The notes beneath the pieces were generated by a model that had not been told where the DNA came from, made no database searches, and saw only the letters and a list, made by a program, of their open reading frames with translations. Below, one piece after another: positions 1 through 8,783 of a stretch of DNA of 64,000 nt; the stretch's first letter is position 1, and each line of letters starts with the position of its first letter. The stretch covers positions 2,648,597 through 2,712,596 of the forward strand of contig OZ244931.1 in NCBI GenBank assembly GCA_965222215.1, given 5' to 3'. Source of the DNA: Alphaproteobacteria bacterium (GTDB lineage Bacteria; Pseudomonadota; Alphaproteobacteria; UBA6615). Both the position numbers and the translations under genes were made by a program.

Positions 1-2108
1 TTGCCGCAGCCAATGCAGGCGTCTGTGATATAGACCTCGCCGCCCATCGCACGCTTGATCGCGTCGGGCGGGCAATCGCTCATGCAGTGAGGATGCTCGC
101 AATGCCGACAGGACGTCGGCACGTGCATGTCGGCGTAGGTCGGCCCGGCCTCGCGGTCGAGCCGCGTGATCCCGCCATGGGTGCCGGCACACGCCTTTTC
201 GCAATTGTCGCAGCCGACGCACAGGGACTCGTCGATCAGCAGGATATCGGTCGCTTCCTTGCCGCCCTGGTCCACCAGGAATTCAATCAGGCTGCCCTGG
301 TCCGGCGTTTCGGCCATTCGGGCCGACATCTCGGCTCGTTCCTGACGAACGGTTTCGATTCGGGCGCGCAGGTCGGGGTGGCGCTCCAGCAACATATTGA
401 AGTCATCACGCTCGATGCGGATGGTTTCGCAATCAGCGGCCGCGGCAACCGTCGCGTTGCGCGGCTCGCCGCTGACGAGGGCCATTTCGCCGACATAGTT
501 GCCGGCCGCGACATAGTTCAGCACCACGTCGTGATCGCCGATCTGCTTGCGGACGAGGACCGAGCCGCGGCGAATAAGGTGCAGGCTGTCGCCCTCCTCG
601 CCCTCGGCGAACAACACCTTGCCCTTCGGCCAGGTGTGGATTGTTGCTGCGGCCGCGATGTCGTCGATGCTGCTGCGATCGAGTCCGGGCGCGAGATGCG
701 CCTGGATCGAGCGCGCAACGGCCTCGCGGTCCATTGCCTCACGCACGGACGGCACGCTCGCGCGCAACGTAATCATACGCCGGCGCGGCACCTCCAGAAG
801 AAGCGCATTCCCCTTGGCGGACACCGTGGCCGTGCGGCGACGGCCGGAGATCAAACCCATTTCACCGAAGAATGCGCCCTGCCCCAACTCGACAGTGGCC
901 TTGGGCGGATCCTCATCGTCCAGGTGAATGAGAACGGAACCCTCGATCACCACATACAGGCTGTTGGTGTAGTCGTTGCGGCGGAACACGATCTCCCCGT
1001 CGGAGAAATTGTGGACGTCCGACTCCAGCATCGTGTCGCGCAGCACAAGCGCGTTCAGTTCCGCAAAGATCGGCACGCGCTCGCGCACCGCGTCGAGGAA
1101 CCCGTCCACGTCCCATCCGGGTGCCACCGATATCTTCTCGCGCAACAGCGGCGCATCGGCCGGCTCCACGTCCTCGCCGACAATATGTTCGACAACTTCA
1201 TAGCCCTGGTTGAGCGCCTGCTTGATGAGCGGGAACCCGCCCAGCGCACCGACTACATACAGTCCCGGCACGTTGGATTCGTACTGCGGTGTCACTTCCG
1301 GCAGCGCATTGCGCTCTTCGTTCGGGAACGTCACGCCGCACGCCTCGACCAGCTTGCGCGGCGGTGCCGCCCCGAGGCGCGCGATGATCCGCTCGCAGGG
1401 AATGCGCGCTTCACCGTCGGGCGTCTCCAGGACGAGCGTATCGGCTTCGACTTCCTTGGTGTTCGCGTTATAGGCCACGTCCATACGGCCGGATTCGATG
1501 GCCGCGAGGATTGCGCTTTCGTTGGCGGACTTGGCGCGCGCGAATTCGCCCGACCGGTTGATGATCGTGACTTCGTTATGCTCGGCCAGCGCCAGCGCAT
1601 TCTCGATGGCCGCGTCGCCCGCGCCGATCACCGAAATTCGCTCATGCTCGAACTCGTCCGGATCGTCGAGCTGATAACCGACATGCGGGTGGTCCGCACC
1701 GGGCACCCGCAGCGTATTCAAGTTTCCCTGGAGGCCGACAGCCAGAATGATCGTCTCGGCCTCGACTTCCGATCCATCCTTGAGCGCGATCTTGAAGTCG
1801 CCTTTGGTGCCGGTGATACCGGTCATTTCCGAATCGAAACGGAAATTTACTCCCGCTTCGTCGGCGCGCGCGCGCCATGCGGCCAGCACGTCTTCGCGGC
1901 GCCCGTCCTCGAACGGGATTTCGCTGCGCAGCGGCGTATGTGCCGGCTGCGCCATGACATGCTTGCCCTTCTGGAATTTGAATATCGTGTTGCTCGGCTG
2001 CGGCGCGCGCTCCAGCACGACGTGCGAAAGGCCGCGAACTGCTGCCCGCGCCCCGGCGCTCAACCCCGCCGGACCGGACCCCACGATGGCGATCTGAAAC
2101 TTGGACAC
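1..2108 (-). CDS. FAD/NAD(P)H-dependent oxidoreductase (TrxR fold) fused to two cyclic-nucleotide-binding domains and a 4Fe-4S polyferredoxin domain; 3' end runs off the window
   Basis: Hand translation from GTG at 2108 (not in the ORF track): MSKFQIAIVGSGPAGLSAG (FAD), VIGAGDAAIENA (NAD(P)H), cNMP cassettes FFGEMGLISGRRRTATV and YVGEMALVSGEPRNATV, Cys motifs CVGCDNCEKAC, CRHCEHPHCMSDCP and CIGCG at the window edge. Confidence 0.93.
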   Translation of the reverse strand, partial: MSKFQIAIVGSGPAGLSAGARAAVRGLSHVVLERAPQPSNTIFKFQKGKHVMAQPAHTPLRSEIPFEDGRREDVLAAWRARADEAGVNFRFDSEMTGITGTKGDFKIALKDGSEVEAETIILAVGLQGNLNTLRVPGADHPHVGYQLDDPDEFEHERISVIGAGDAAIENALALAEHNEVTIINRSGEFARAKSANESAILAAIESGRMDVAYNANTKEVEADTLVLETPDGEARIPCERIIARLGAAPPRKLVEACGVTFPNEERNALPEVTPQYESNVPGLYVVGALGGFPLIKQALNQGYEVVEHIVGEDVEPADAPLLREKISVAPGWDVDGFLDAVRERVPIFAELNALVLRDTMLESDVHNFSDGEIVFRRNDYTNSLYVVIEGSVLIHLDDEDPPKATVELGQGAFFGEMGLISGRRRTATVSAKGNALLLEVPRRRMITLRASVPSVREAMDREAVARSIQAHLAPGLDRSSIDDIAAAATIHTWPKGKVLFAEGEEGDSLHLIRRGSVLVRKQIGDHDVVLNYVAAGNYVGEMALVSGEPRNATVAAAADCETIRIERDDFNMLLERHPDLRARIETVRQERAEMSARMAETPDQGSLIEFLVDQGGKEATDILLIDESLCVGCDNCEKACAGTHGGITRLDREAGPTYADMHVPTSCRHCEHPHCMSDCPPDAIKRAMGGEVYITDACIGCG

Positions 2109-2201
2109 GCCCCCGAAACTCTCCCCAGATACCCGCGAACCTCTACGATGGTCCGCTTCACGAAAACAAAGTTCTTGTTACCGGCTGCCCCTGCCGGCGG
2201 C

Positions 2202-2244
2202 TGTGATACGAATCACTACACCATCGAACGGATTTGAGTATACT
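2202..2244 (+). promoter_or_regulatory. CRP/FNR-family box TGTGA-N6-TCACT with TATACT -10 element (class II activator-dependent promoter geometry)
   Basis: TGTGA 2202-2206, TCACT 2213-2217 (9/10 to TGTGA-N6-TCACA); TATACT 2239-2244 implies +1 near 2251, putting the box centre at -41.5. Confidence 0.7.
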
Positions 2245-2302
2245 AGCTTACCGTTCCGAAATCGAACGTGAAGGGGCCGCTGGGGCAGCGGTCGGGGCAA
2301 AA

Positions 2303-3604
2303 ATGATTATTTCCGGTGTTCGTGCCGCACGCATCTTGTCTTTGGCGGCATCCATTCTGGCTCTATCTTTGGGGGCACAACACGCCTCGGCTCAAGATAA
2401 CGGAGCTATCCACCTGGGGGTACAGACCTGCGCGGCATCGACATGCCACGGCGCGGTCCAGCCCTGGCAGAATTCCGTGGTCCTGCAGAACGAGTTCGTT
2501 GTCTGGAGCACGCACGATGCGCATTCGGGTGCGTACGATGCTCTTCTCTCCGACCGGGCGAAGCGCATGGCTGCCCGGCTTGGCATCGGTGCCGCACATG
2601 AATCCGGCACCTGCCTGGCCTGTCACGCGGACAATGTGTCTGAGGATCGTCGCGGCAGGAACTTCGACATCACCGACGGCGTCGGTTGCGAAAGCTGCCA
2701 CGGAGGTGCCGAAAACTGGCTCGGCACCCATGTCAGCGGTCTCAGCGATCGGCCGACCCTGGTCTCGGAAGGCATGTACCCGACCGACGATCCGGTCAAA
2801 CGGGCCGAACTCTGCCTCGGTTGTCACCAGGCAAATCCGGACCGCATGGTTTCCCACCGCCTGATGTCCGCCGGCCACCCGCGCCTGTCTTTCGAGCTCG
2901 ACACCTTCTCGGTCAATCAGCCGGCTCATGTGCGCATCGACGACGACTACCGGCAACGCAAACCGGTCACCGACGGCGCAAACCTCTGGGCGATCGGGCA
3001 GGCCGTCGCGGCCGAGAAGCAACTCCGCGCCCTGGCGAAGTCGATGCGCGGGCGCAATCACCTCTTCCCGGAACTGACGTTCTTCGAATGCGGCAGCTGC
3101 CATCATTCCTATACGAATGCGAAGTGGAGCCCGCAGCCCGGCGTCGGCCTCGGACCGGGTGAACCGCAACTCTATGACGCCAACCTGGTCATGCTGCGTG
3201 CCATCGCCGACGGCAGGGACGACAAACTCGCTGCGACCCTTCGCAACCAGACCCGCGCGCTGCACCGCGCGACCCGCCAGGGTTCCGGTGCTGTTGCACG
3301 GGCGGCGGAAACGCTCGCTGACACCGTCAGCGGTGTGAAACGCGGCCTCGTCGACAAGCCGCTTCGCGAGGCGGACCTGCGGGCCACGCTGGCCACGCTT
3401 GTGTCACGCGACCACGCCGCCGACTACGTGGATTTCAGCGCCGCCGAGCAGGCCACGATGGCCGCGGCCGCGATCATCGCAACACTCGGGCAGTCGGCAC
3501 CGCCGGCGCTCGATTCGCTTTACGACGCGACGTCTTCTCCGACCCGCTACAATTCTAGCGGCTTCCGGAGCGCACTCGCGAAACTTCGAGACTATCTGAA
3601 CTAG
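2303..3604 (+). CDS. exported multiheme c-type cytochrome (c554/c552-4-like); 4 CxxCH plus 1 CX4CH
   Basis: Signal peptide after ATG 2303 (ending ASA-QD); motifs CAASTCH, CLACH, CESCH, CLGCH, CGSCH; helical C-terminal part. Confidence 0.9.
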   Translation: MIISGVRAARILSLAASILALSLGAQHASAQDNGAIHLGVQTCAASTCHGAVQPWQNSVVLQNEFVVWSTHDAHSGAYDALLSDRAKRMAARLGIGAAHESGTCLACHADNVSEDRRGRNFDITDGVGCESCHGGAENWLGTHVSGLSDRPTLVSEGMYPTDDPVKRAELCLGCHQANPDRMVSHRLMSAGHPRLSFELDTFSVNQPAHVRIDDDYRQRKPVTDGANLWAIGQAVAAEKQLRALAKSMRGRNHLFPELTFFECGSCHHSYTNAKWSPQPGVGLGPGEPQLYDANLVMLRAIADGRDDKLAATLRNQTRALHRATRQGSGAVARAAETLADTVSGVKRGLVDKPLREADLRATLATLVSRDHAADYVDFSAAEQATMAAAAIIATLGQSAPPALDSLYDATSSPTRYNSSGFRSALAKLRDYLN

Positions 3605-3607
3605 GAC

Positions 3608-5464
3608 GTGGTTGTGTTTACCCAACTCAGACTTTCCTGGCTGCCGATTGCGGCGGCTCTCGTGTTTGCGGCAACCAATACCGTGAACGCCGATACGCAA
3701 ACCGCGGCGAGCTCACTGCCGCCGTCGAATATCTGGTTCGCGCCGGCTGCTGACGGCAGCGACGTGCCGGAGGCATATCAGACGGCCGCCGTGAACACGG
3801 AAGGCAAGGATCCGCATCGCGCCCTGTTCGACGAGACCGAGTTTCCGTCGGCCGTTACCTGCGGGCGCTGCCATCAGAAGATCTTTACCGAGTGGGCGTC
3901 GTCGAACCACGCCTACGCGTCGATCTCGCCGATGTTTCACAAGTTCGAGCAGGCCATCAACGACCTGTCCTCGGGCACCATCGGCTCGTTCTGTGTGCGT
4001 TGCCACCAGCAGGTCGGCACCCAGCGCGGCGAACCGCGCGAGCAGCCGCTGTGGGAACGTTCGCTCGTCGCGCGCGAGGGCATCACCTGCGTGACATGCC
4101 ACCGCGTGAACGCGGAGTTCGGCAAGGTGAACGGCGAGCGGCACATTCAGCCCGGACCGATCGAGCAGCCAGTCTATGGCATCGGCCGCGCCGACAACCT
4201 TGAGAACGTCCTCAGCAACCCCGACGAATACAAAGTGGCGACCGAGGAAGACCCGGATGGCGCACAGATTCATCTGGCGGCCCTCGAGTTCGAGCAGATC
4301 GGCGACTCCCAGTTCTGCGTGTCCTGCCATCAGGTGGCCGTGAACCTGGGCATCAAGCTCGAAGTCGTGTGGGAACAGTATCGTGACAGCCCGGCTCAGG
4401 AGGCCGGAATAACCTGCCAGGACTGCCACATGGGCAAGGTGCCCGGCGAAGCCAAGGGTTACGCCGAGTGGCCGGTTGCCATCGTCAACGGGCGTGTCAT
4501 CGGGGATCCCAACGCACGCCACTCGAACCATGCCTTCTATGGCCCCGGCTACCCGATCTCTCACCCGGGCCTGTTCCCGTTCAACCCGCGCGGCCTGCGC
4601 TGGTCGATCAAGGAATGGCTGACGTTCGACTATCGCGCCGGCTGGGGCCTCGCGGATTGGGAGAACAAGCTTAGGGACGGCGAAGTTGCGGCGCCCGAAT
4701 TCCCCGAAATCTGGCAAAAGCGCGAAGACCGGATGTTCGCTCGCTTCGTGATCCAGCAGAACGAAAAACTGCTCGAAGACAAGCGCCGCGACCGCCTCGC
4801 CGTCATGGAAAACGGGAGCCGGATCGACGGCCCGTTCTTCGACGGCGACACGCCCGAGCGCGGCAAGAGCCTGTCGGTCCGCTATCGCGTGACCAACACG
4901 GACAAGGGCCACAACCTTCCGTCCGGTTCGCTGGGTGCGCAGCCGGAAATCTGGCTCAACGTGGCGCTGATCGACCCGGATGGCGAAAACGTCTGGGAAT
5001 CGGGATACGTGGACAGCCTCGGCGACATGGCCGACCTGCATTCGCTGGACGTGGCCGCTGGCACGATCGAACACGACGACCAGTTGTTCAACCTGCAGAC
5101 CAAGTTCCTGACCACCAACGTGAAGGGCACCGACCGGGAAATGTATCTTCCGGTACAGTTCGATATCGATCAGCTACCGTTCCTGCGCCCGGCCAACCTG
5201 CCCACCACGGTGTTGAACCATCCGCCGTTCGTGCGGATGGAAGGCCGGTCGATCCCGCCGCTCGGCTGGCGCGATGCGGAGTATAAGATCCCCGGCGAAG
5301 CTCTCCAGAAACCGGGCACCTACAAACTGCAGGTGCGGATGCGCTCGCGGGCCGAGCCGATCTATTTCATGCGGTTCGTCGGTGCGACCCGCGAGATGGA
5401 AGAGCGCATCAATGACTGGATGATCGACATCCATCCCTACGCGGTCGAGTTCGAGATCAAGTGA
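3608..5464 (+). CDS. exported pentaheme c-type cytochrome with beta-rich C-terminal domain
   Basis: Signal peptide (ending VNA-DT); CGRCH, CVRCH, CVTCH, CVSCH, CQDCH. True start may be GTG 3614, which is better spaced from AGGA. Confidence 0.9.
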   Translation: MVVFTQLRLSWLPIAAALVFAATNTVNADTQTAASSLPPSNIWFAPAADGSDVPEAYQTAAVNTEGKDPHRALFDETEFPSAVTCGRCHQKIFTEWASSNHAYASISPMFHKFEQAINDLSSGTIGSFCVRCHQQVGTQRGEPREQPLWERSLVAREGITCVTCHRVNAEFGKVNGERHIQPGPIEQPVYGIGRADNLENVLSNPDEYKVATEEDPDGAQIHLAALEFEQIGDSQFCVSCHQVAVNLGIKLEVVWEQYRDSPAQEAGITCQDCHMGKVPGEAKGYAEWPVAIVNGRVIGDPNARHSNHAFYGPGYPISHPGLFPFNPRGLRWSIKEWLTFDYRAGWGLADWENKLRDGEVAAPEFPEIWQKREDRMFARFVIQQNEKLLEDKRRDRLAVMENGSRIDGPFFDGDTPERGKSLSVRYRVTNTDKGHNLPSGSLGAQPEIWLNVALIDPDGENVWESGYVDSLGDMADLHSLDVAAGTIEHDDQLFNLQTKFLTTNVKGTDREMYLPVQFDIDQLPFLRPANLPTTVLNHPPFVRMEGRSIPPLGWRDAEYKIPGEALQKPGTYKLQVRMRSRAEPIYFMRFVGATREMEERINDWMIDIHPYAVEFEIK

Positions 5465-7062
5465 TGTTCAAAACAATGAAACGATCCGCGCCGGCCATCG
5501 CGCTGGCGGCCACAATTCTTGTCAGCGGTGGTGCCGTCGCCGAGGTGGTCACACAGACCGCCCAGACCCAGCGCCGTGAAGCTCCGCCGCCGGAGTTGCG
5601 CGAGGAACGAACCGGCAGCCCCGAGCATGAGGGCCACCAGGCACCGCCGGAAATGGACCCGGCTGTCCGTCGCTCGAGCCACGACAGCGAAGACTACCGC
5701 CCGGACCCGACCTATCCGGACGAGCCCTACGACGTGGAAGCGCAGCTGGAAATCTACGGCGGGAAGCGGGCGGTCAAGACGCCGCGCCCGGTCCTCGAAT
5801 TCGGCTTTCCCCAGTATCGCGAAGGCCCCATTGGCGCCGGTCACAACCTCGTCGGCGCCAAGAACCTGGTCCGGCCTCAGCTGCTCGTCTATGGCGACTG
5901 GCGCACGGCGGTCGCGTTCAACGACAACGGCAACAAGGAGACGGCGCTCGTCGCAACGCGCCTCAACCTCGATGTCGACCTGAAGATCACGGCGACCGAA
6001 CGCCTCCACGCCTTCTTCCGGCCCGTCGACCAAGGCGGAAAGTTCACGCGCTACGAGTTCGCGGGCGGCGATCACGATGAGGGCGACCTGATCCTCGACG
6101 CCAATATCGAGAACTTCTTCTTCGAGGGCGATCTCGGCGCCATCCACAGCGGCCTCGCGGACGAATACACCTCCTGGGACCTGCCTTTCACCTTCGGTCT
6201 CGTGCCGATGTTCTTCCAGAACGGCATCTGGGTCGATGACGCCTTCGTCGGCGGCGCGTTCGCGCTGACGGCGCGCAACTCGCGCCGGCTGGACATCTCG
6301 AACTACGACATCACCTTCTTCGGCGGCCTGGACAAGGTGTCCAGTGCGGCCCTCAAGGACGCCGACGGCGCGCTGGCCGACCATGCCGGCGACATCCTGG
6401 GCATCGCGACGTTCGCCGACATGCAGGAAGGCCATCTGGAAGCGGGCTGGGGCTATACGGACGATACCCGCGACGAGCCCCAGGGCGATTTCAGCTACCA
6501 CAACTTCATGGCCGGCTGGACCAAGCGCTACGGCGGCTGGCTGTCCAACTCGATCCGCGCAGTCTGGGCCGTGGGGCAGGATCCGGAAGCCGGGCAGACA
6601 CAGACCGCCGACGGCGTTGCGCTGTTGCTGGAAAACTCGCTGGTCACGTCCCTGCCGACCACGCTCGTGCCCTACTTCAACTTCTTCGTCGGCCTCGACC
6701 GTCCGCAGCCGCTGGCGCGGGGCGGGGACGGCCTGCTGAAGAACACGGGCATCAACTTCGAGACGGACGCGCTGACGGGCTTCCCCAAACTGGACGACAC
6801 GGCACGTGACGCCTGGGGCGGGGCGGTCGGTGTCAGCTACCTGTTCGACCTGTCGCGTCAGATCGTCGCCGAGGTCGCGACCGTGCAGCCCATGTCGAAT
6901 GCCTCGGCCGCCAAGGGCGATCAGTACGCACTCGGTCTTCGCTACCAGATGAACCTGTTCGGCCGTGACCGCTGGCTCATGCGCACGGACGCCATGTACG
7001 GCATCCTCGAAAACGACGAGGATATCGCGGGCGTGCGTCTGGAGTTCCGACGGAAATTCTAG
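5464..7062 (+). CDS. hypothetical exported protein, probable outer-membrane beta-barrel
   Basis: TGATG overlap with the upstream cytochrome gene; signal peptide; many alternating aromatic/hydrophobic strands; C-terminus AGVRLEFRRKF ends in Phe (BAM-type signal). Confidence 0.7.
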   Translation: MFKTMKRSAPAIALAATILVSGGAVAEVVTQTAQTQRREAPPPELREERTGSPEHEGHQAPPEMDPAVRRSSHDSEDYRPDPTYPDEPYDVEAQLEIYGGKRAVKTPRPVLEFGFPQYREGPIGAGHNLVGAKNLVRPQLLVYGDWRTAVAFNDNGNKETALVATRLNLDVDLKITATERLHAFFRPVDQGGKFTRYEFAGGDHDEGDLILDANIENFFFEGDLGAIHSGLADEYTSWDLPFTFGLVPMFFQNGIWVDDAFVGGAFALTARNSRRLDISNYDITFFGGLDKVSSAALKDADGALADHAGDILGIATFADMQEGHLEAGWGYTDDTRDEPQGDFSYHNFMAGWTKRYGGWLSNSIRAVWAVGQDPEAGQTQTADGVALLLENSLVTSLPTTLVPYFNFFVGLDRPQPLARGGDGLLKNTGINFETDALTGFPKLDDTARDAWGGAVGVSYLFDLSRQIVAEVATVQPMSNASAAKGDQYALGLRYQMNLFGRDRWLMRTDAMYGILENDEDIAGVRLEFRRKF

Positions 7063-7202: not shown

Positions 7203-8783
7203 GTGACGAAACAACCGAACTTCATCCTGTTCATCACCGACCAGCATCGCGCCGACTTCCTCGGCTGTTACGGTCACCCGGTCCTGAAGACCCCGAACAT
7301 CGACGCCATCGCGGCCGACGGGGTGCGTTTCGACAAGTTCTACGTCACCAGCCCCGTCTGCATGCCCAACCGCGCAAGCCTGATGACGTGCCGCATGCCC
7401 TCGAGCCATGGCGTGCGGTCGAACGGCATGCCCCTGGGCCGCGAGAACGTCACTTTCGTCGAGGTGCTGCGCGACGCCGGCTACGACACGGCACTGATCG
7501 GCAAGAGCCACCTGCAGAACTTCTCGGGCATGCCGCCCTTCGGAAAACCGGATGAGCCGCGCGACGGATACCACGCACCCGGCGACGGCCTGTCCGAAGC
7601 CCGGCGGCACGACAACGACAACCCGGCCTACGAGGTCGAACGGCCGCATTTCTGGGACGATCCCGGCGCCGCCGTCCCCACGCCCTTCTACGGCTTCGAC
7701 TATGTGGACCTCGTGACGGGCCACGGCGATTCGGTCGGGGGCAGCTACCGCGCATGGCTCGCCGAGCGGGACCCGGACGCCGCACGCCTGCAGGGTCGGG
7801 AGAATCAGCTCGACCACGACTATGTGTGCCCCCAGGCCGTTCGCACGGCGCTGCCCGAAGAGCTCTATTCGACCACCTACATCCAGGAGCGCGCCGCGGC
7901 ATGGCTGGAAGCCCGCGCGGATTCCGACCGCCCGTTCTTCCTGATGGTGTCCTGGCCGGACCCCCACCACCCGTTCAACCCCCCGGGCAGGTACTGGGAC
8001 ATGTACACGCCCGACCAGATGGAACTTCCCGCCGCGTTCGCGAACAACGACTGGACGCCGCCGGCCCATGTGGCCAACGCGATCCGCGAGCGCGAGGCCG
8101 GCGAAGCGGCGATGCAGGGCATGAACTCCATCGCCTGCAGCGCGCAGGAAGCGCTGGAGGCGCGCGCGCTGACCTGCGGCATGATCGCGATGATCGACGA
8201 CGCCGTCGGCGAGGTTATGGGGTCGCTGAACGGCACGAACCTGCGCGACGATACCGTCGTGTGCTTCACCGCCGACCATGGCGACCACCTTGGCGATCAC
8301 CGGCTCCTGTTCAAGGGTTCGGAGCAATACGATCAGATCACCCGCGTGCCGTTCATCTGGTCGGACCCGGAAGGCCCTTCCGGCGGACATGAGACCGGCA
8401 TCGGCCAGACTCACGACATCGGCACTACGGTCCTGGAGCGGGCGAAGATCGAGGCGCCCGCCGGGATGCAGGGTTTGCCCCTGCCGGTCGCGGGCGGAGA
8501 ACCCCGTGACGCGGCACTGATCCAGTACGAACACCAGAAACCCAGCGCGATCTTCAAGCCCGTGCCTCGGGTACATTCGGCGCACGACGGGCGCTGGCGG
8601 CTGTCGATCTACGACGGGTCGGATTTCGGCGAGCTCTACGACCTCGAAACCGACCCTCACGAACTCACCAACCTTTGGGACGACCCGAAAGCCACCGCGG
8701 ACAAGTCACGAATGCTGCTGGCATTGGCGAAGCTGGAGGTTGCCACGATGGACCGGATTCCCGTGCCCACGGGGCGCGCCTGA
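7203..8783 (+). CDS. Cys-type sulfatase family hydrolase (cytoplasmic)
   Basis: PNFILFITDQHR, CMPNRASLMT (CxPxR), GKSH, PDPHHP, ADHGD; RBS GGAGG. Confidence 0.92.
   Translation: MTKQPNFILFITDQHRADFLGCYGHPVLKTPNIDAIAADGVRFDKFYVTSPVCMPNRASLMTCRMPSSHGVRSNGMPLGRENVTFVEVLRDAGYDTALIGKSHLQNFSGMPPFGKPDEPRDGYHAPGDGLSEARRHDNDNPAYEVERPHFWDDPGAAVPTPFYGFDYVDLVTGHGDSVGGSYRAWLAERDPDAARLQGRENQLDHDYVCPQAVRTALPEELYSTTYIQERAAAWLEARADSDRPFFLMVSWPDPHHPFNPPGRYWDMYTPDQMELPAAFANNDWTPPAHVANAIREREAGEAAMQGMNSIACSAQEALEARALTCGMIAMIDDAVGEVMGSLNGTNLRDDTVVCFTADHGDHLGDHRLLFKGSEQYDQITRVPFIWSDPEGPSGGHETGIGQTHDIGTTVLERAKIEAPAGMQGLPLPVAGGEPRDAALIQYEHQKPSAIFKPVPRVHSAHDGRWRLSIYDGSDFGELYDLETDPHELTNLWDDPKATADKSRMLLALAKLEVATMDRIPVPTGRA

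Follow-up and report, generated by a model that had tools for sequence, protein, structure and literature searches.

A fused-head form of the ptd/PCC4 gene set in an alphaproteobacterium: a candidate cyclic-nucleotide-gated, NAD(P)H-fed electron-transfer chain with a predicted cytochrome-barrel complex

We analyzed a 64,000-nucleotide (nt) stretch of DNA from Alphaproteobacteria bacterium (UBA6615; assembly GCA_965222215.1, contig OZ244931.1, positions 2,648,597-2,712,596 of the forward strand), which we call the window, meaning the whole stretch. Our subject is a cluster of redox genes at its left end that continues past window position 1. The source genome is a single closed contig of 3.9 Mb, and the six-gene cluster is complete in it; should a culture be available, this copy would suit genetic work. 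We refer to the genes as A (fused head), B (PtdD-type), C (PtdA-type), D (PtdB-type), M (PtdF-type) and F (PtdG-type), to the stretch of this genome around the cluster as L003, and to related loci as L004, L005 and so on. The genes form two divergent operons, A-M-F reading leftwards and B-C-D rightwards, as follows (aa, amino acids).

Window 3..2108, past the left edge (whole gene L003:12339-14705), minus strand: gene A, ptdC/E-type fused head, placed from the list of open reading frames (ORFs) and the genome
Window 2202-2217, no strand: palindrome TGTGATACGAATCACT with core GTGA-N6-TCAC, in the spacer that separates the two operons, roughly 100 nt away from each of the start codons
Window 2303..3604, plus strand: gene B, ptdD-type, 433 aa, conserved ATG start, Cytochrome_C554 at 1.6e-9
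Window 3608..5464, plus strand: gene C, ptdA-type pentaheme cytochrome, 618 aa, five CXXCH
Window 5461..7062, plus strand: gene D, ptdB-type outer-membrane barrel, 533 aa, ending in RRKF
L003:11506-12342, minus strand: gene M, PtdF-type, 278 aa, overlapping A by 4 nt
L003:9761-11500, minus strand: gene F, PtdG-type, 579 aa, 5 nt after M

A preliminary description, made from the letters of the window, had placed A to D here, with a gap of 3 nt between B and C, an overlap between C and D and a divergent layout, all of which the ORF list confirms. It had also held that no characterized system has this make-up. A full-text search of the available literature found no functional study of the set, so that no published function is at hand, but the set itself is already in print. 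He, Barco, Emerson and Roden described it in 2017 as PCC4 (PMC5566968), and a 2023 preprint by Elbon, Stewart and Glass (bioRxiv 10.1101/2023.11.21.568154) named it ptdABCDEFG and states that its function "remains completely unknown"; both are cited here for the parts of their text that were available. The cluster is thus a copy of the known, named and functionally uncharacterized ptd/PCC4 set, in a fused-head form. What is new here is a predicted clamp between C and D, the 18-strand class of the barrel, a mutual exclusion between two flavin modules and a conserved palindrome.

The correspondence with the ptd genes of the preprint runs through the whole cluster. PtdA, a pentaheme protein with a heme-free C-terminal domain, corresponds to C; PtdB, the adjacent porin, to D; the tetraheme PtdD to B; PtdE, with cyclic-nucleotide (cNMP) and iron-sulfur (Fe-S) parts, to the C-terminal two thirds of A; the ferric-reductase-like membrane protein PtdF to M; and the decaheme PtdG to F. 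Our cluster differs in that a TrxR-like flavin module is fused to PtdE and a separate FNR-like PtdC is absent, in that the genes lie in two divergent operons, in that B has a fifth, CX4CH site, and in that F carries an FHA-like cytoplasmic domain, the word FHA being absent from the text of the preprint available to us. With PCC4 the cluster shares a porin, a trio of multiheme cytochromes in the periplasm (4, 5 and 10 sites) and other redox proteins, together with a conserved five-helix inner-membrane protein bearing two WX3HX13H motifs and SGXXG on helix 4; in the marine Subgroup II of PCC4, a pfam13247 Fe-S gene precedes the membrane protein (PMC5566968). It differs from PCC4 as described in that He et al. 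have electrons flow from a donor outside the cell into the quinone pool, and in that cyclic nucleotides, FAD and FHA go unmentioned in the main text available from that paper.

In order to follow the set across genomes, we searched the window proteins by tblastn against 80 loci from other genomes. These loci were retained from a one-genome-per-species collection in which at least 497 of 600 candidate stretches encode a relative of D. Contig ends truncate many of them, and M is a divergent protein. We found C beside D in 76 of the 80 loci, A in 54, F in 51, B in 50 and M in 38, and the carriers span Alpha-, Beta- and Gammaproteobacteria. This co-occurrence bears out the earlier proposal that the genes belong together. 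Gene order varies by lineage, from the divergent layout to A-M-F-B-C-D and C-D-B-A-M-F; therefore, the linkage is not mere shared ancestry. Within the taxonomic order of the source organism the distribution is patchy: PtdA was found in 7 of 46 genomes, counting the source genome (G000), and, apart from G000, in 4 of 10 genomes belonging to its genus. Many carriers are marine genomes without an iron-oxidizer label.

Gene A encodes 788 aa, of which residues 1-702 lie inside the window, the gene ending at L003:12339. Pfam matches assign residues 4-302 to Pyr_redox_3 (2e-30) and Pyr_redox_2 (4e-26), two stretches to cNMP_binding (1.4e-38) and residues 625-770 to Fer4 and related 4Fe-4S families. 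The protein starts with its cytoplasmic flavin domain, without a signal peptide. This domain is of the TrxR-like FAD/NAD(P)H type, but has cysteines at 238 and 257 only and so lacks a CxxC redox disulfide, while the C-terminal part has four groups of four cysteines (630-640, 667-679, 698-708 and 750-766). A reached no NCBIfam model, the best being YpdA with 133.8 bits against a cut-off of 339.9. The cNMP and Fer4 domains are present in 23 of 23 aligned A homologues, and a fused Pyr_redox flavin domain in 13 of these; in the phosphate-binding cassette of the first cNMP domain, G415, E416 and R425 are invariant in all 23 sequences. The cyclic-nucleotide link that had been proposed for A is supported by these domains, and a class III cyclase gene lies about 4 kb left of the window. 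We also considered the Fe-S part as an NrfC/DmsB-type subunit and rejected this candidate: the four cysteine groups are there, but the DmsB model gives 28.3 bits against 214.1. That family goes with export and a periplasmic catalytic partner, whereas the Fe-S part of A is the C-terminus of a cytoplasmic flavoprotein that has no signal peptide.

The flavin module differs between loci in a way that carries our main argument. We sorted the loci by the length of the complete A homologue, counting those of at least 700 aa as fused, and then searched them with a 424-aa FNR-like protein that, in short-head loci, directly follows PtdB and has FAD_binding_6, NAD_binding_1 and Fer2 domains. This protein was found in 0 of 23 fused-head loci, in 21 of 23 short-head loci and in 15 of 34 loci with A incomplete or missing. 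Both short-head misses have a visible circumstance, as one locus stops 154 nt past D and the other has as its A match a 250-aa ORF far off the cluster. The separate FNR-like PtdC of the ptd cluster thus has no homologue in loci of the fused-head type to which our cluster belongs (0/23), and a TrxR-like domain is fused to A in its place. The TrxR-like and FNR-like modules, both NAD(P)H-dependent flavin modules but unrelated, are mutually exclusive between the cluster types. Since two unrelated modules fill one role, NAD(P)H coupling appears to be an essential, conserved part of the system, and its conservation also argues for an outward flow of electrons. As an observation apart, in the split-head locus L070 a cytochrome P450 gene (12762-14018, minus strand) directly follows the FNR-like PtdC, and L049 has an ORF of the same length at the same place.

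A membrane partner had been expected left of the window, and M, with F behind it, was found there. It is not a quinone module of the NrfD/DmsC type: M is instead a five-helix protein (helices counted by eye) with two WX3HX13H motifs, starting at residues 83 and 248. In PCC4 this motif was read as a di-heme-b, ferric-reductase-like site in the available text of He et al. (PMC5566968). Two such motifs are present in 34 of 34 complete M homologues. Residues W83, H87, H101, W248, H252 and H266 are invariant in 22 M homologues, as are G125 and G128, and M reads TGLFG at the site given as SGXXG on helix 4 for PCC4. By the positive-inside rule, the pairs H87/H252 and H101/H266 would hold one b-heme near each membrane face. 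In NOX/FRE proteins, and in MsrQ with MsrP, two HX13H pairs, set on two helices, likewise stack two b-hemes across the membrane and carry electrons from cytoplasmic NAD(P)H outwards, as M would. The arrangement here differs in that the flavin module is separate from M, with four Fe-S clusters and cNMP domains between them, and in that a multiheme chain would receive the electrons.

F has a weak FHA/YscD-like N-terminal domain, one hydrophobic helix and ten CXXCH motifs. All ten motifs are present in 44 of 46 F homologues, and counting this decaheme the set holds about 20 c-hemes, in place of the 10 periplasmic hemes first proposed. Among 23 F homologues (E <= 0.01), 10 match FHA and 12 match YscD_cpl. 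The phosphothreonine-binding residues of FHA domains are Gly-Arg and Ser-x-x-His; the corresponding domain of F has an invariant G32 and, at a conservation of 90% or more, R33 and G34, and the Ser of SxxH is not evident by eye.

Both B and C had been taken for five-heme cytochromes. This stands for C, which has five CXXCH motifs, as do 63 of 65 complete C homologues. B has four CXXCH and one CX4CH, and would carry five hemes only if the CX4CH site is used; among 47 complete B homologues, 30 have the 4+1 motifs, 15 have four CXXCH only and 2 differ. The C-terminal half of B is heme-free. For B, C and D, signal peptides were assigned by visual inspection alone. For the start of B, the ORF list gives TTG 2234, but ATG 2303 is conserved in five related loci and is most likely the start. 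A GCAGCGGTCGGGG block at window 2276-2302, a few bases 5' of this ATG, is kept in all five divergent-layout loci, in contrast to the rest of the spacer, and may be a ribosome-binding or leader element.

The heme domain of C spans residues 70-320 or so, with all five CXXCH within 85-274, and is followed by a heme-free, strongly conserved C-terminal domain that includes residues 503-555. Mean column identity is 62% over 22 sequences from three classes, the heme-free half included. Outside the motifs, H70, H101, H111, H222, H308 and H319 of the heme domain are invariant. A profile of C matched one solved protein well, the pentaheme cytochrome c552 of Thermochromatium tepidum (5ze8, E 7.8e-8), whose five heme motifs are in the same order and in register; the likeness is confined to the heme domain (profile positions 51-253). 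A 2025 paper (PMC11976967), in the text available, unites this protein with Geobacter ExtKL in a PHC family, in which a pentaheme part is joined to an immunoglobulin-like domain, and reports that extKL clusters with the porin gene extI. C differs from this family in scoring far below the ExtKL cut-off (31.4 against 250 bits), and D differs in having no sequence relative in the PDB by profile search. Searches with the C-terminal domain of C matched only unnamed clusters in the protein atlas, and a Foldseek search with the C model gave 0 matches at E <= 0.001, the top one being 5ze8 at 1.8e-3 with template-modelling scores of 0.18/0.27, a weak match from a low-confidence model. Two further candidate identities were rejected. 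NrfA does not fit C, which lacks CXXCK and scores 22.5 bits on PF02335 against a cut-off of 24.1, with NrfB and NrfH NCBIfam matches far below their cut-offs; nor do C and B belong to the DmsE/MtrA family, for which they score 30.2 and 20.3 bits, respectively, against 192.2.

Neither Pfam nor NCBIfam has a family that D matches. Behind its predicted signal peptide come a conserved extension some 110 residues long, 18 strands and a terminal Phe. At E <= 0.001 we found 2224 relatives among 8000 candidates scored, and none of the 120 relatives listed bears a functional name. The D model has an overall predicted local distance difference test (pLDDT) score of 62.8, higher in the barrel; its first 130 residues or so are conserved from about residue 57 and have low model confidence. 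The best Foldseek matches in the PDB are Campylobacter MOMP, AlgE and OccK/OprD-type channels, and MtrB is not among the matches listed. MOMP, AlgE and OccK/OprD are 18-strand barrels, whereas MtrB has 26 strands. Thus, the barrel that had been likened to those of MtrAB and PioAB is a barrel, predicted to bind C, but the model places it in the 18-strand, AlgE/OprD-like class and not with MtrB. In systems of the MtrAB type, a large barrel sheathes a decaheme of the MtrA/DmsE family. Our cluster resembles MtrAB, MtoAB and PioAB in that a periplasmic multiheme cytochrome is encoded beside a barrel and predicted to enter it; it differs in the strand number and in that the segment of C predicted to occupy the lumen has no heme motif. 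Since D belongs to the 18-strand and not to the 26-strand class, a wire of hemes spanning the outer membrane, as in Mtr systems, is unlikely. In some Legionellales/Gammaproteobacteria (L013, L014 and L016, and P0034-P0057), the barrel protein has some 300 additional residues and a match to Pfam PF24125; the D homologues in L013, L014 and L016 measure 821-838 aa.

Modelling of the barrel with the cytochromes had been suggested as a check by the preliminary description. We modelled the complex from C 70-618 and D 83-533 in three runs, with three controls and our own alignments. The interface score ipSAE was 0.88, 0.90 and 0.88 in the three runs and 0.00 for the best of the controls. Of solved complexes, 58 of 80 attain the ipSAE mark, as do 2 of 110 mismatched pairs; with custom alignments these counts hold only approximately. 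At least 81% of contacts were common to the runs, and pLDDT of the partner was at least 84. In the modelled contacts, the D extension (83-127) lies on the heme domain of C (108-149, 168-180 and 334-344). Residues 503-555 of C, which are Pro-rich, without a heme motif and disordered in the monomer model, contact every second residue near one end of nearly every D strand, as well as loops 250-255 and 428-431. The strand ends touched are those that flank the short turns and the C-terminus, that is, the periplasmic rim, and the contact pattern fits 18 strands. C is therefore predicted to cap the periplasmic mouth of D, with the heme-free, Pro-rich segment at about 503-555 in the lumen. The predicted interface is more conserved than the remainder in both D (0.74 versus 0.65; one-sided Mann-Whitney p 2e-4) and C (0.79 versus 0.69; p 1e-3), figures that treat as independent residues that are not, and we take this as mild support for the predicted binding. 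Overall, the complex model supports binding of C to D.

The palindrome between the operons had been called a CRP-type box, a claim that holds in part. At the corresponding place between divergent operons, L004, L005 and L008 have the exact GTGA-N6-TCAC core and L007 has it with one mismatch, against a background of only 30 such sites in the 1.2 Mb of loci; the DNA of L004 is nearly identical to that of our locus and so is not independent. The flanks around the core are poorly conserved, with 48% mean identity. On the other side, the TGTGATACGAATCACT box is not more frequent than expected by chance: the window has 2 matches where 1.09 are expected, and a count of 2 is attained by 32 of 100 shuffles. 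In loci whose genes are arranged otherwise, the search ahead of A, B and C gave no such site, and the exact 16-mer CRP consensus had no match in 83 loci. A sigma-70 scan of the intergenic region gave no promoter, and terminator-like sites were not above shuffles. The CRP-family helix-turn-helix model has 11 matches in the genome, 6 of them over the cut-off and none near the cluster. CRP-type transcriptional control is only suggested by the conserved palindrome. A second GTGA-N6-TCAC site lies at window 27783.

Farther left of F lie a DctP-type gene and the following two genes:

L003:4387-8790 (3.8-8.2 kb left of window position 1), plus strand: CHAT-domain gene (831 aa) and CHASE2 class III nucleotide cyclase (635 aa)

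The genome encodes 9 class III cyclase domains in all. In L023 a CHAT gene and a CHASE2 cyclase come directly after the cluster; L009 and L012 have a CHAT gene next to A. A dedicated cyclase as a general rule is ruled out by carriers that have no CHASE2 gene near the cluster (G046, G047 and G050) or none in the genome at all (G048 and G049). The dedicated cyclase may be followed as a lead for this lineage, not as a rule.

Beyond the core genes, the recurrent flank genes among 846 ORFs in 81 stretches are PtdC, divergent or extra PtdD-like cytochromes, one 294-aa family and housekeeping genes (ABC ATPase, thiamine pyrophosphate enzyme, glutamate dehydrogenase and acyl-CoA synthetase). The 294-aa family has no Pfam match and may be a divergent PtdF. 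In eleven loci (L027, L029, L040, L041, L043, L051, L052, L057, L058, L068 and L080), an extra c554-like cytochrome gene of about 470 aa lies between the barrel gene and the PtdD-type gene, in the order C-D-x-B-A-M-F. In the window, D is followed by a sulfatase-family gene (7203-8783, plus strand; Sulfatase 1.6e-46, below the NCBIfam arylsulfatase cut-off). It stands beside the cluster in only 1 of 80 loci and is therefore probably unrelated.

From the gene content, motifs, conservation and barrel class set out above, and from the modelled C-D complex, we infer cofactors, direction, gating and acceptor as follows. On balance, we lean towards a cNMP-gated, NAD(P)H-fed chain that exports electrons to an acceptor met at or through the barrel. 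Cytoplasmic NAD(P)H would reduce the FAD of the TrxR-like domain of A, which has no redox disulfide, and electrons would pass to four [4Fe-4S] clusters at the C-terminus of A. They would then cross the inner membrane via two b-hemes held by the four invariant histidines of M (PtdF) and continue through the membrane-anchored decaheme F (PtdG) and B (PtdD) to the pentaheme C (PtdA). The latter would be clamped on the periplasmic mouth of D, with the N-terminal extension of D wrapped around its heme domain, and a soluble or surface oxidant would reach C at the barrel or through it. Electron flow would be gated by the two cNMP domains, which lie between the flavin and Fe-S parts of A.

The same feed of electrons could instead serve a periplasmic enzyme with a private channel, in which PtdA reduces a small N, S or Se oxyanion, NO or hydroxylamine entering via PtdB. 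The available text of the preprint places PtdA in the COG (cluster of orthologous groups) of NrfA and reports ptd genes in nitrite oxidizers (10.1101/2023.11.21.568154). In our own data, C has weak Cytochrom_C552 and ExtKL matches and, at the column identity given above, is unusually conserved for a carrier. D, moreover, falls in the AlgE/OprD class. Barrels of that class are solute channels. Yet C has five CXXCH motifs and no CXXCK and stays below the PF02335 cut-off, and the six invariant non-motif histidines of its heme domain are enough for five bis-His hemes. The conserved motifs of its C-terminal domain (434-440, 472-479 and 497-555) fall in the predicted PtdB interface, so that their conservation can be explained without a catalytic site. 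We regard such an enzyme as rather unlikely, and outer-sphere acceptors, for example chelated metals or redox shuttles, as more likely than an oxyanion bound at an open heme.

Electrons might also run the other way: a donor outside the cell or in the periplasm, for instance Fe(II), Mn(II) or reduced sulfur, would feed them into PtdB/PtdA, and the remaining cytochromes would hand them on to the inner membrane. He et al. drew this model for PCC4, and their available text reports the set in Fe(II)-oxidizing Zetaproteobacteria, in Hyphomicrobium and in drinking-water-filter genomes, and likens the absence of an extracellular cytochrome to MtoAB/PioAB (PMC5566968). Inward flow sits poorly with the cytoplasmic NAD(P)H flavoprotein found in both cluster types, and no quinone-site subunit was recognized among the cluster and flank genes. 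Driving electrons of such donors to NAD(P)+ against the membrane potential would need an energy input that no gene of the set appears to offer, and the set is also found in the many marine genomes that carry no iron-oxidizer label. To us, an inward conduit is quite improbable. As a further alternative, NAD(P)H electrons could go to O2 at the cell surface and yield extracellular superoxide. An NAD(P)H flavoprotein with a two-b-heme membrane protein bearing HX13H pairs resembles NADPH oxidases. Marine heterotrophs make extracellular superoxide by unknown enzymes. About 20 c-hemes and a barrel would be superfluous for reducing O2, though, and ptdAB is highly transcribed in a marine oxygen-deficient zone according to the preprint text available (10.1101/2023.11.21.568154), which makes an oxidase of this kind highly improbable in our estimate.

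Several points weigh against outward, cNMP-gated export as we have drawn it. Its direction comes from the NAD(P)H module and thermodynamics, whereas He et al. proposed the opposite flow and the set is found in Fe(II) oxidizers (PMC5566968, available text). In the parts of the two papers available, ptd/PCC4 members are described without experiment (PMC5566968; 10.1101/2023.11.21.568154). The C-D complex is a model from shallow alignments of 22 and 14 rows, with insertion depth taken from contact lists only, and the monomer model of C (pLDDT 54.7) is too poor for fold assignment. C might have an open catalytic heme. M has no Pfam match at E <= 0.001, PF01794 (ferric reductase) included, so that its likeness to ferric reductases is one of motifs only. 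Likewise, the FHA-like domain of F lies under the Pfam cut-offs (FHA 20.1 versus 20.7 bits; YscD_cpl 24.5 versus 33.2).

Going beyond electron export as such, we tentatively put forward a bolder interpretation, which is possible though doubtful. PtdA-PtdB may be a second, structurally distinct kind of porin-cytochrome pair, in which the N-terminal extension of an 18-strand barrel locks a pentaheme cytochrome onto it, and a conserved, heme-free, Pro-rich part of the cytochrome enters the lumen and may reach as far as the outer loops. As a whole, the Ptd chain would then be a trans-envelope reductase fed by NAD(P)H and gated by a second messenger, a bacterial system whose logic parallels that of NADPH oxidases, with a chelated metal, a redox shuttle or O2 as its acceptor. 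Relatives of the barrel gene occur at at least 497 places in the one-genome-per-species collection, without a known function. If cNMP-controlled export of NAD(P)H electrons is indeed what the set performs, it would be a common, unrecognized way for aquatic bacteria to carry out reductions outside the cytoplasm, and it would bear on the chemistry of iron, manganese, nitrogen and reactive oxygen in the sea.

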